Shown here one piece after another: positions 2,980 through 6,868 of a stretch of 49,277 bases of DNA. Numbering within the stretch: position 1 is the stretch's first letter; each line of letters opens with the position of its first letter. The position numbers were made by a program, and so were the translations under genes. The DNA comes from a virus (lineage: Duplodnaviria; Heunggongvirae; Uroviricota; Caudoviricetes): the IMG/VR virus record IMGVR_UViG_2534682330_000007; one strand, written 5' to 3'. The notes under the pieces were generated by a model that saw only the letters and a list, made by a program, of their open reading frames with translations, made no database searches and was not told the DNA's origin.

Positions 2980-3411
2980 TCAATATCTATTCCTGTAATA
3001 TCTTTTATCTTTTATCTTTTTCCTTGCAAAGCCTTTTGCTAGTGATTTTGAAACACTCATAAGTGTACTAATTCCCTCATCCTTAAAGTTTGTTTTTATA
3101 GCTTGCCAGACATCCTTTTGACGTAAGTCAGCAATAAAATCATGCCCTCTTGCTGTCAACCTCAGTGGTACTTCGATCCAACTATATCCAACCCCTTCCC
3201 CTAACGCTTTGGACAATATATGACCGAACCCAGGTTTTCCATCAACCCTGACTATTAATTCGTAGTCACATAATAATCGCATATGGAAAATAAAATCTTG
3301 GTCATATCTATTAAAGCCATTATCCTCTAGTTCACTAAGCATCGTGTCAGGGCCACGAGTTTTTTCGAATGCGATAAGTAGATCTTTTAGATATTGCTGG
3401 TCTAATTTCAT
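2980..3411 (-). CDS. Hypothetical protein, 143 aa (AT-rich accessory island)
   Basis: ORF track; AT-rich codon usage unlike flanking lambda genes; lysine-rich C-terminal tail; no confident family assignment. Confidence 0.6.
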   Translation of the reverse strand: MKLDQQYLKDLLIAFEKTRGPDTMLSELEDNGFNRYDQDFIFHMRLLCDYELIVRVDGKPGFGHILSKALGEGVGYSWIEVPLRLTARGHDFIADLRQKDVWQAIKTNFKDEGISTLMSVSKSLAKGFARKKIKDKRYYRNRY

Positions 3412-3439: not shown

Positions 3440-3778
3440 TTATATCATTAATTTTGTTTCGTGCCAGCCTTTGGTCACCCAGCATTGTGAGTCACCATTA
3501 CACGGGCATGAATTAACAGGAACTCTCTCGCCGCACTTACCGCACCGTTTTCTGCTGATCGATTTTATACGCCAGCGCACACGTGCATCATCCTGGCGGC
3601 TCAGTAACGCGATGTACTCACCAAACTCGCAAGGCGCACGCCTGAAGCGACGCGTGGCACAGTTACGCTCCAGCATTTCAATTTCCTGAGCATCAAGTAC
3701 AAGCTCCAGCTTACGCATACCGGATGATGCTTGCTTGGCTCTCTGATCGGCTTTGTGCTCTGTTGCTGATTTAGCCAT
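3440..3778 (-). CDS. Hypothetical Cys-rich zinc-ribbon protein, 112 aa (possibly Ea8.5-like)
   Basis: C-terminal CGKCGERVPVNSCPCNGDSQC cysteine cluster; 28 bp upstream of the 143-aa ORF on the same strand; occupies the lambda ea8.5 slot. Confidence 0.55.
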   Translation of the reverse strand: MAKSATEHKADQRAKQASSGMRKLELVLDAQEIEMLERNCATRRFRRAPCEFGEYIALLSRQDDARVRWRIKSISRKRCGKCGERVPVNSCPCNGDSQCWVTKGWHETKLMI

Positions 3779-3973
3779 TCTGCTTTTCCTGCATCAGGAG
3801 AAAGACAATCATGGCGGCGCGGATACTTCCGGTATCTTTTTACGCGATATTCCCCTTCAATGGCACATACAAGAAGAGAGCCATCAACAGGAGTGATTGA
3901 GGAATCGACAACCAGCAACGCTTAATTATCTATAGTGTCGTATTTGCTTCATAAAATATGGCGAATAACACAA

Positions 3974-4007
3974 AGCCCGCAGCAGCTCATTGTGCGGGCT
4001 TTTCTTA
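3974..4007. terminator. Stem-loop (AGCCCGCA-N11-TGCGGGCT) followed by TTTCTT; possible bidirectional terminator
   Basis: Perfect 8-bp inverted repeat read from sequence, located just 3' of the 204-aa minus-strand gene. Confidence 0.45.
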
Positions 4008-4071
4008 TACCTACTTCCTAGAGATAATTCTATGGAGGCATTAAATCAATACTGTCATTGGTAATATCATA

Positions 4072-4686
4072 TTATCTAAAAGTCTTTCCACTTTTAACAT
4101 CTAGGTATATTCTGTTCGACAACGTCATTCCTCCGCAATATGTGAAATAGATGTTTTCACCCTTATTGCTTGATGCCATCCACCCTCCGATTTCCTTAAA
4201 ATCGCTTTCCGTGCAGACCCCTTCATTTATTAACTTCCTAGCTGCCGAAGAAAACTCTTTTTTGTATATACGGTAGTCATCAGATCCTTTGATTAAAGTA
4301 TCATCTCCGCTCGCATTTTCAGCAGGATCTGATGGCCTTTCACTGCTAAGATCACTAAGTTTAACCCATTCTGAAAACTTGCCATTAACGATTCCATTTT
4401 TTCTTGTGCAGGATTTATTACCTTCTTTAATATATTCGCTTTCCCCTCCAACACATGAGGCTGAATATGGCTCAGTTATACGAACCCATTCACCTTTTTT
4501 TTCTAGAAAATCTACGCCTTCCCTGAAAAATATTTTCCCAGCCACTCCACATTTACTTGAAGGGCAGGTATGTCTTTCCGTTCGATCAACAACAACCCAT
4601 AGTTTTGATTCATTTTTTGCCATTGCCGATGGTATTTGAGATGAGACAATTAACGTAAGCCCTAAAATTAGTATTGATTTTTTCAT
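4072..4686 (-). CDS. Secreted Cys-rich hypothetical protein, 204 aa (signal peptide)
   Basis: N-terminus MKKSILILGLTLIVSSQIPSAMA is a typical Sec signal with AxA cleavage site; 8 cysteines in mature part; AT-rich DNA. Confidence 0.65.
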   Translation of the reverse strand: MKKSILILGLTLIVSSQIPSAMAKNESKLWVVVDRTERHTCPSSKCGVAGKIFFREGVDFLEKKGEWVRITEPYSASCVGGESEYIKEGNKSCTRKNGIVNGKFSEWVKLSDLSSERPSDPAENASGDDTLIKGSDDYRIYKKEFSSAARKLINEGVCTESDFKEIGGWMASSNKGENIYFTYCGGMTLSNRIYLDVKSGKTFR

Positions 4687-4984
4687 TGTAATTTCCTTTT
4701 ACTTTTTACAAAGCGTTTAATCATGGCTGATTATCTCTAAGTGTAGTAACAGCCTTGTGCGAAACATGTTACCAAATCGCCATTTCAGTGTATCCGCAGT
4801 TAGGCTGCCACTTCAAGGATTCCTAATTACATGGTACGTAAGCGTAAAATCCCGTTGGTTGGCGGGTAATAACTCTGATCAAATCTCCCTTGTCTTTTGC
4901 TCTTACGTATGCAGCTCTTGTGTATTCAACCCAGGCCTCCAGTTCAGCAATACGCTTACTTCCATCCGAGATAACACCTTCTAC

Positions 4985-5236
4985 TCACGCTGCTCGTTGA
5001 GTTTTGATTTTTGCTGTCTCCAGCTCAACACGCAGTTTCCCCACCGTTAGCGCAATATCCTCGTTCTCCTGGTCGCGGCGTTTGATGTATTGCTGGTTTC
5101 TTTCCCGTTCATCCAGCAGTGTCAGCACAATCGATGGTGTTACCAGCTCATGGAAAAGGTCCGCGTCAAATCCCCAGTTGTCAGGCATTGCCTGCTCTGC
5201 CGCTTCACGCAGTGCCTGAGAGTGAATTACGCTCAC
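4985..5236 (-). CDS. Small early-left protein, 83 aa (possibly the C-terminal part of an Ea22-like protein)
   Basis: ORF track; GTG start overlapping the stop of the upstream gene (GTGA); coiled-coil-like sequence; Ea22 relation is a guess. Confidence 0.45.
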   Translation of the reverse strand: MSVIHSQALREAAEQAMPDNWGFDADLFHELVTPSIVLTLLDERERNQQYIKRRDQENEDIALTVGKLRVELETAKIKTQRAA

Positions 5237-5454
5237 TTCGAACCTCTCTGTTTACTGATAAGCTCCAGATCTTCCTGGCAACTTGCACAAGTCCGACAAC
5301 CCTGAACGGCCAGGCGTCTTAGCTCATCTATGGGATCGCCACACTCACAACAATGAGTGGCAGATACAGCCTGGTGGTTCAGGCGGCGCATTTTTATTGC
5401 TGTGTTGCGCTGTAATTCTTCAATTTCTGATGCTGAATCAATGATGTCTGCCAT
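5233..5454 (-). CDS. TraR/DksA-family C4 zinc-finger protein (lambda Orf73-like)
   Basis: 73 aa with CCECGDPIDELRRLAVQGCRTCASCQ, the four-cysteine pattern of the TraR/DksA C4 zinc finger. Confidence 0.75.
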   Translation of the reverse strand: MADIIDSASEIEELQRNTAIKMRRLNHQAVSATHCCECGDPIDELRRLAVQGCRTCASCQEDLELISKQRGSK

Positions 5455-5552
5455 CTTCCATTAATCCCTGAATTGTTGGTTAATACGCTTGGGGGTAAAT
5501 GCGAGCAATAAAAAAGGAGCCTGTAGCTCCCTGATAATTTTGCTTTTCATGT

Positions 5553-5768
5553 TCATCGTTCCTTAAAGACGCCGTTTAACATGCCGATTGCCAGGCTTAA
5601 ATGAGTCGGTGTGAATCCCATCAGCGTTACCGTTTCGCGGTGCTTCTTCAGTACGCTACGGCAAATGTCATCGACGTTTTTATCCGGAAACTGCTGTCTG
5701 GCTTTTTTGATTTCAGAATTAGCCTGACGGGCAATGCTGCGAAGGGCGTTTTCTTGCTGAGGTGTCAT
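5553..5768 (-). CDS. Small early-left hypothetical protein (about 71 aa from ATG at 5768)
   Basis: ORF track 5553-5834; internal ATG at 5768 (MTPQQENALRSIARQ) is the more plausible start. Confidence 0.5.
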   Translation of the reverse strand: MTPQQENALRSIARQANSEIKKARQQFPDKNVDDICRSVLKKHRETVTLMGFTPTHLSLAIGMLNGVFKER

Positions 5769-5844
5769 TGAACAAGCCCCATGTCGGCAAGCATAAGCAC
5801 ACAGAATATGAAGCCCGCTGCCAGAAAAATGCATTCAGTGGTTG

Positions 5845-6187: not shown

Positions 6188-6868
6188 TCATCGCCATTGC
6201 TCCCCAAATACAAAACCAATTTCAGCCAGTGCCTCGTCCATTTTTTCGATGAACTCCGGCACCATCTCGTCAAAACTCGCCATGTACTTTTCATCCCGCT
6301 CAACCACGACATAATGCAGGCCTTCACGCTTCATACGCGGGTCATAGTTGGCAAAGTACCAGGCATCTTTTCGCGTCACCCACATGCTGTACTGCACCTG
6401 GGCCATGTAAGCCGACTTTATGGCCTCGAAACCACCGAGCCGGAACTTCATGAAATCCCGGGAGGTAAACGGGCATTTCAGCTCAAGGCCATTGCCGTCA
6501 CTGCATAAACCATCGGGAGAGCAGGCGGTACGCATACTTTCGTCGCGATAGATGATCGGGGATTCAGTAACATTCACGCCGGAAGTGAATTCAAACAGAG
6601 TTCTGGCGTCGTTCTCGTACTGTTTTCCCCATGCCAGCGCCTTAGCATTAACTTCCGGAGCCACACCGGTGCAAACCTCAGCCAGCAGGGTGTGGAAGTA
6701 GGACATTTTCATGTCAGGCCACTTTTTTCCGGAGCGGGGTTTTGCTATCACATTGTGAACTTCTGAAGCGGTGATGACGCCGAGCCGTAATTTGTGCCAC
6801 GCATCATCCCCCTGTTCGACAGCTCTCACGTCGATTCCGGTACGCTGCAGGATAATGTCCGGTGTCAT
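6188..6868 (-). CDS. exo: Lambda exonuclease (Red alpha)
   Basis: 226 aa [69 protein letters not shown] matches lambda Exo. Confidence 0.97.

Follow-up and report, generated by a model that had tools for sequence, protein, structure and literature searches.

The window analyzed here, a stretch of 49,277 nt, is a segment of an E. coli chromosome that carries a lambda-like prophage at the lambda attachment site. The host gene ybhC occupies positions 1-1284 on the minus strand, and the lambda att core, GCTTTTTTATACTAA, lies at position 1331. Since both are present, the sequence represents a prophage integrated at attB-lambda together with its host flank, as opposed to a free phage genome. The int (1419-2489) and xis (2467-2685) genes come next, and the prophage arm shares 99.9% identity with Escherichia phage Chlobot (PP925838.1). 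In the order in which they are met along pL, the minus strand encodes N, ral, kil, gam, bet, exo, several small ORFs, a TraR/DksA-like protein (5233-5454), a truncated ea22-like ORF (4985-5236; an incomplete Ead/Ea22-like pseudogene in RefSeq annotation of the same module), and a 204-aa protein (4072-4686), which is the subject of this work. Beyond the latter gene lie a G+C-rich hairpin (3974-4007), a UmuD/HumD-like fragment (3841-3918), a 112-aa ORF (3440-3778), a DUF2513 gene (2980-3411), a 55-aa ORF, xis, and int. Elsewhere in the window there is a step in base composition: G+C content is 54-59% from ~24 to 44 kb, a stretch that presumably holds the structural genes, and 37-40% in the last 3 kb.

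Several of the neighboring ORFs call for comment. The UmuD/HumD-like fragment, on the minus strand, is a remnant that lies outside the functional unit, and RefSeq calls its copies an incomplete 'DNA repair protein'. Over 37 aa, it shares 76% identity with HumD of a P1-like element of E. fergusonii, in which humD is intact and sits directly upstream of a homologue of the 204-aa gene; in the window, the fragment is downstream. This arrangement hints at an exchange between P1-like and lambdoid phages. The 112-aa ORF is Cys-rich, and is overlapped in another frame by the HumD-like fragment; in other E. coli copies, an internal stop makes it a pseudogene. A plus-strand ORF of 97 aa (4757-5050) is annotated in Chlobot and absent from the RefSeq annotation. 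Since it has no family match, overlaps the ea22 remnant, which is encoded on the complementary strand, and goes without RefSeq annotation, it is probably not a gene.

The gene and its candidate transcription signals

The 204-aa ORF, to which an earlier note on this DNA had drawn attention, is present as described: the ORF list and translation place the coding sequence of the precursor at 4072-4686 (stop codon included) on the minus strand, with an ATG start. A Shine-Dalgarno-like AAGGAA, read from the sequence at 4693-4698 on the same strand, lies 6 nt before the ATG and is unchanged in the alignment of the E. coli and E. fergusonii copies. The start codon itself varies among relatives, i.e., ATG in E. 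coli, GTG in E. fergusonii, and apparently TTG in the Pseudomonas, Aeromonas, and Citrobacter homologues. The protein matches phrog_8310 (PHROGs v4) over its full length (E 3.5e-136; residues 1-204 against profile positions 1-204) and belongs to the same family, although the PHROG itself carries no functional information. A homologue search returned 82 proteins, many of them exactly 204 residues long, and the 204-aa homologues of Pseudomonas and Aeromonas are 60-69% identical to the window protein. Pairwise comparison of E. coli alleles that differ at synonymous sites gave dN/dS values of 0.10-0.20, and comparison with the E. fergusonii copy, where dS is ~0.74, gave values of 0.07-0.09. Since a dN/dS of 0.07-0.20 and 82 homologues are not what a chance ORF would produce, these comparisons identify the ORF as a real gene under purifying selection. 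It is intact in decayed prophages whose neighboring genes have internal stops or truncations, as well as in the pieces of prophage that IncA and IncF plasmids of Citrobacter and E. coli have captured.

Every named relative is annotated as a 'hypothetical' or 'exported hypothetical protein'. No papers came up in literature searches on the protein accessions, the PHROG, or phage Chlobot, and a topical literature search found nothing on the 204-aa protein. Scans of the protein against Pfam, NCBIfam, and PADLOC gave nothing except a sub-threshold match to SH3_3 (see below), and an Rfam scan of 3700-5300 returned no RNA family.

Upstream of the gene, our own scan located a candidate sigma-70 promoter on the minus strand at 4787-4816 (TTGAAG, an 18-nt spacer, and TACACT), which is weak (8/12 matches). 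Both hexamers are invariant between E. coli and E. fergusonii and the spacer differs. A stricter scan called no promoter on the gene's strand, and the more distant homologues have no upstream sequence in common. Downstream, 65 nt after the stop codon, RNA folding gave the hairpin at 3974-4007, whose ~12-bp stem (-17.5 kcal/mol) is followed by TTTTCTTAT on the plus strand and TTTGTGTTATT on the minus strand. A pattern scan flagged only a shorter, plus-strand version at this position because its loop limit excludes the long stem. The E. fergusonii copy has an analogous hairpin (AAAAGCCCGCA...) with a similar stem and A- and T-run flanks ~80 nt after its stop codon. The earlier note had suggested a possible bidirectional terminator here, and the prediction agrees, in that a strong hairpin is bordered by T-rich tracts on both strands; we therefore treat it as a candidate bidirectional intrinsic terminator. 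An independent transcription unit is plausible.

The gene is co-oriented with pL, so that N-antiterminated transcription heading toward xis and int would read it in any case. In lambda, xis and int depend on N-antiterminated pL transcripts. Since both genes lie downstream of the hairpin on the same strand and share this dependence, the hairpin must be read through after induction; in the lysogen, it would insulate xis and int from a transcript begun at the cargo gene's own promoter. Another terminator-like hairpin, with a long T-run (5514-5532, minus strand), is located between a 93-aa ORF (5553-5834) and the TraR/DksA-like gene. It, too, is on the strand transcribed from pL and is another signal for N-antiterminated read-through.

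Predicted export and domain architecture of the 204-aa protein

Codons 1-23 (4618-4686, minus strand) specify a predicted Sec/SPase I signal peptide, MKKSILILGLTLIVSSQIPSAMA, with KNES as the sequence that follows it. The leader is made up of a basic n-region (MKK), a 13-residue h-region (SILILGLTLIVSS), and a c-region (QIPSAMA) that ends in A-x-A, with cleavage predicted after AMA and before the Lys. This is the layout of a Sec/SPase I signal peptide, which calls for a basic n-region, 7-15 hydrophobic residues in the h-region, and small residues at positions -3 and -1. The h-region reaches 3.18 in a 10-residue Kyte-Doolittle window, and the scan found no second hydrophobic segment elsewhere in the protein. 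In the structural model described below, residues 1-23 have a pLDDT of <50. An export-type N-terminal leader was also found in all 40 aligned homologues. Sorted by pattern rules of our own making, as distinct from a trained predictor, these leaders are SPase I-like (A-x-A) in 26/40, show a lipobox pattern in 13/40 (~11 of them convincing), and consist of a zinc ribbon plus a membrane span in the remaining protein, whose zinc ribbon is cytoplasmic. Lipobox homologues have no Asp at +2 and carry a long, Pro/Ser/Glu/Ala-rich linker ahead of the first domain. The Sec signal peptide claimed in the earlier note is supported by both the layout and the homologues, and the 204-aa protein is almost certainly exported, with the periplasm as its likely destination.

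Structure prediction with AlphaFold2, run on the homologue alignment, gave a mean pLDDT of 89.9, with values >90 for residues 30-204. The linker is included in the latter range, and the model shows two domains that are rigidly connected. That the gene encodes an exported protein of two domains is, in our judgment, very likely.

The first domain (residues ~28-112; 4351-4605, minus strand) is a bacterial SH3 (SH3b) domain, as judged by its modeled fold, an SH3-like beta-barrel that resembles solved SH3b domains. The match of this protein to the Pfam model SH3_3 (15.7 bits, E 0.018) is below the 27-bit gathering cut-off, and many of its relatives pass. A search of the PDB with the single 204-aa sequence returned nothing. 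Within the domain, a family-specific insert (residues ~72-106) holds Cys78 and Cys93, and the first loop holds Cys41 and Cys46. SH3b domains anchor endolysins, lysostaphin, and NlpC/P60 enzymes to peptidoglycan, although SH3b folds also bind other ligands. In the present family, the lipoprotein versions resemble outer-membrane-anchored proteins whose flexible linker is long enough to reach the wall; we infer from this that the SH3b domain may bind peptidoglycan. The protein departs in several ways from the SH3b (SH3_3, PF08239) domains of endolysins, lysostaphin, and NlpC/P60 enzymes: its score is below the cut-off, it has an insert that probably bears a disulfide, the SH3b domain is fused to an undescribed small domain instead of a hydrolase, and the whole is a predicted Sec-exported, periplasmic protein of a Gram-negative host.

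The second domain (residues ~125-204; 4075-4314, minus strand) is modeled as an alpha/beta fold with a long helix (138-154), a short helix (160-166), and a three-stranded sheet, and matches no described family. It contains the motifs SDD[YF], GGW, YFTYCGG, and NRIYL as well as Cys158 and Cys184, and the two cysteines are the only invariant columns across 123 diverse proteins that possess the domain. The earlier note had counted eight cysteines in the 204-aa protein; there are in fact six (41, 46, 78, 93, 158, and 184). In the two most distant full-length homologues, Cys41/Cys46 and the insert with Cys78/Cys93 are missing together. Since the C-terminal pair is invariant and the other two pairs are lost jointly, the protein probably forms three disulfides (41-46, 78-93, and 158-184), and oxidative folding of the exported protein is likely.

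A profile of the C-terminal domain matched 531 clusters (E<=1e-3) among 1.84 billion representatives, i.e., ~530 when counted as clusters at 50% identity, and in nearly all of the 150 matches listed out of these 531 the alignment extends to the C-terminal end. Among the 123 diverse members, the domain follows an SH3b domain in 45 and a zinc ribbon plus membrane span in others, at least 11 of which match a zinc-ribbon model. Proteins of 100-130 residues have it directly behind a signal peptide or lipobox, and standalone versions of ~100 aa are common. In each of these contexts, the domain is predicted to be extracytoplasmic. One such standalone protein, of 106 aa, is found in Marinobacter litoralis, where a DUF2513 gene (6401-6763 of locus L026) lies 80 nt behind its gene. 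No Pfam or NCBIfam model covers the domain in any of the 123 members, a BFVD fold search gave no match, and a fold search revealed no similarity to any hydrolase. Profile matches in the PDB were limited to de novo designed TIM barrels, which we discarded as helical-repeat artefacts in which no single stretch passes. On these comparisons, the C-terminal domain and its whole family are undescribed and are spread across diderm bacteria. The domain is short (~80 residues) and lacks a conserved His or Glu as well as any cysteine outside the putative disulfide pair, features that hint at a binding or blocking module.

Distribution and mobility of the gene

The ORF has a G+C content of 37.9%, vs. 50.2% for the window. 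When the region was searched against phage genomes, 394 records matched, only one of which (Chlobot) covers the segment with the gene; it is absent from the other 393, and these other records begin to match only at ~4938. A protein search of 50,697 phage records likewise found a single record. The gene is present in 132 of 5,426 complete E. coli genomes, and 130 of the 132 copies cover >=80% of the ORF. One E. coli copy is interrupted by IS1; all other copies listed are annotated as genes and not as pseudogenes, including those in decayed prophages. In the E. coli chromosomes examined, the gene always lies in the prophage arm at ybhC.

In all, the gene occurs in five kinds of mobile element, and relatives are also found outside of this setting. 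In an E. fergusonii P1/P7-like phage-plasmid, the gene is directly after humD; in an Aeromonas prophage, it is between a Q-type antiterminator and the lysis genes; in Pseudomonas integrase islets of ~5 kb, it follows the integrase immediately, at or close to the head of the cargo; and further relatives are found on a 5.3-kb ColE1-type plasmid of Citrobacter and in IS-rich DNA. Other relatives reside in ordinary chromosomal neighborhoods, including a syntenic position between sbcCD and secDF in Vibrio. Since the family has chromosomal, syntenic members in Vibrio, it is not intrinsically phage-related. Besides the integrase and the 204-aa homologue, the Pseudomonas islets carry a KilA-N-like regulator and three conserved ORFs (105, 130, and 337 aa) without known family, and they adjoin sdhE/cptA in two cases. 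They may represent an uncharacterised small mobile element or satellite.

Copies of the gene are also found on plasmids. Citrobacter and E. coli plasmids of the IncA and IncF types have captured the prophage arm in a deleted version that runs from int-xis through the 204-aa gene and the TraR-like gene to a lysis remnant, trkG, and tail fibre assembly, with ars genes and IS elements as neighbors. Proteins that are 99-99.5% identical to the window protein are encoded on large plasmids of Enterobacter and Klebsiella, and these probably represent a captured prophage arm as well. Independent acquisition of the plasmid copies was considered and rejected, as the copies examined are captured pieces of the same prophage arm.

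The segment that moves with the gene can be delimited by comparison with E. fergusonii. DNA homology to its P1-like element (84.8%) is confined to positions 4070-4828 of the window, i.e., the ORF plus the 142 nt upstream of it. The upstream block (4687-4828, minus strand), which comprises the 5' leader and candidate promoter region, therefore travels with the gene. Homology to ordinary lambdoid phages restarts near 4938, inside ea22, and this point marks the upstream mosaic junction.

To look for genes that accompany the family, 48 further loci were fetched, and the ORFs of 60 loci were clustered all-against-all. There was no recurrent partner gene in the 60 loci apart from the genes of the Pseudomonas islets, which reflect shared ancestry, and an antisense shadow ORF. 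A toxin/immunity pair or other two-gene system was rejected on these grounds and, since no neighbor recurs in the clustered loci, the gene appears to work alone. The DUF2513 gene of the window is on the same strand ~660 nt downstream of the 204-aa gene and, together with the Marinobacter locus described above, raised the possibility of a conserved pairing. We rejected this as a rule since it holds in only two independent loci of ~60 and is probably a coincidence.

The earlier note had called the gene a moron of the early-left region, and its position in the pL-distal accessory arm, its low G+C content, and its absence from 393 of 394 matching phage records bear out that description. Three of the usual marks of a moron are present, i.e., an insertion that most relatives lack, a deviant base composition, and a candidate terminator of its own; as for a promoter of its own, there is only the weak, conserved site described above. 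We regard it as likely that this is an autonomous cargo gene.

Possible roles at the envelope

The explanation that best accounts for these results overall is that the locus is a self-contained moron in the pL-distal arm whose exported product, an SH3b domain joined to the C-terminal domain, has a role at the envelope. We put the probability of this reading at roughly 50%. According to the mechanism that we envisage, the precursor would be exported by Sec and cleaved after Ala23 to yield a soluble periplasmic protein of ~20 kDa. The SH3b domain would dock the protein on the sacculus, where the C-terminal domain would act as a binding or blocking module and not as an enzyme, and the altered envelope property would benefit the cell that carries the element. 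Upon induction, transcription from pL under N antitermination would cover the gene. Its own weak promoter may also drive it in the lysogen, in which case the downstream hairpin would keep the transcript from entering xis and int. The narrower proposition, that the envelope role is peptidoglycan-associated and non-enzymatic, is one that we advance tentatively and consider somewhat doubtful.

Neither exported accessory proteins from prophage cargo genes nor the SH3b domain are new. Exported moron or lysogenic-conversion proteins of lambdoid phages include Bor and Lom of lambda, Cor of HK022 and phi80, and gp15 of HK97. Like these, the gene described here is an extra gene found in some relatives only, with a foreign G+C content, a predicted envelope location for its product, and candidate transcription signals of its own. 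Unlike them, it lies in the pL-distal ea/xis region instead of near tail or lysis genes, its product is a predicted soluble periplasmic protein as opposed to an outer-membrane protein or lipoprotein, and neither its sequence nor its fold relates it to any of them. T4 Spackle and the periplasmic lysozyme inhibitors Ivy, MliC/PliC, PliG, and PliI are small, Sec-exported, disulfide-containing periplasmic proteins encoded by solo genes. A functional analogy to these proteins is plausible for the 204-aa protein; sequence and fold comparisons revealed no likeness to Ivy, MliC/PliC, PliG, PliI, or Spackle.

The earlier note had likened the protein to lysogenic-conversion factors that modify the surface, exclude other phages, or inhibit targets in the periplasm, a role that these results neither support nor refute. 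If the product acts at the wall, it could conceivably serve as a protective factor, with the sacculus-tethered C-terminal domain blocking incoming peptidoglycan hydrolases (phage tail lysins, amidase or muramidase effectors of T6SS, or lysozyme) or the periplasmic step of DNA injection, in the manner of superinfection exclusion or immunity. A predicted periplasmic protein with a domain of the cell-wall-binding type would suit this function, as would its encoding by a solo gene on prophages, a phage-plasmid, small integrase islets, and a ColE1-type plasmid and the preservation of that gene in decaying prophages. However, many family members are ordinary chromosomal genes and, when the protein and five neighboring ORFs were searched against PADLOC-DB 2.0, no defence model was matched at E<=1. 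We therefore consider a protective factor unlikely. Rather more speculative is the extension of this idea to the family as a whole, according to which the C-terminal domain would represent a new family of modules for binding or inhibition outside the cytoplasm, and its SH3b-fused, mobile version would be tethered to the sacculus to neutralise phage tail lysins, T6SS effectors, or lysozyme, forming a new class of prophage-borne envelope defence.

A second explanation is that the gene serves the lytic cycle only, as a delayed-early gene of pL that is silent in the lysogen and acts, e.g., in conditioning the wall before lysis or in excluding competitors during the latent period. The gene is oriented like the pL operon and is situated between the recombination/ea genes and xis-int, the latter being genes that N-antiterminated transcripts must reach, and no strong promoter was found. 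Nevertheless, the 142-nt upstream block has stayed with the gene even in an element of a quite different kind, and the gene is followed by a candidate hairpin terminator. Furthermore, the gene is intact in remnants from which the genes for replication, lysis, and structure are gone, as well as in captured plasmid fragments, for which selection in the non-induced state is the easier explanation, and the 5-kb islets of Pseudomonas, in which the gene is beside an integrase, carry no lytic genes. An exclusively lytic function thus seems improbable.

The pairing of an SH3b domain with a second domain mirrors the architecture of cell wall hydrolases, and the C-terminal domain has invariant polar residues (Ser135, Asp136, Asp137, Ser172, and Asn191). 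The domain might therefore be a new small cell wall enzyme that SH3b directs to its substrate, as in endolysins and NlpC/P60 hydrolases. Yet it is only ~80 residues long, has no conserved His, Glu, or free Cys, and resembles no hydrolase in fold, while its two invariant cysteines are best explained as a disulfide and its standalone versions of ~100 aa are common. We consider enzymatic activity very unlikely. Least probable of all is that the gene is a functionless passenger in E. coli, recently acquired and unexpressed or neutral, since its rarity (132/5,426 genomes), its foreign G+C content, and the one IS1-interrupted copy are outweighed by a dN/dS well below 1, within E. coli as well, and by the 130/132 copies that cover >=80% of the ORF, with every listed copy bar the IS1-interrupted one annotated as a gene.

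As it stands, the envelope-directed moron proposed here joins the many uncharacterised cargo genes of prophages, and it would become notable only if its reading as a wall-tethered inhibitor is right. Should its function prove mundane, the locus would still provide a clean example of a promoter-gene-terminator cassette that moves among lambdoid phages, P1-like phage-plasmids, integrase islets, and plasmids. If, on the other hand, the protein does bind the sacculus and protect the lysogen, it would add a periplasmic, wall-level mechanism to the few envelope defences that prophages are known to encode, and would supply a first function for a domain family without annotation that occurs in hundreds of bacterial lineages and on mobile elements of several kinds.
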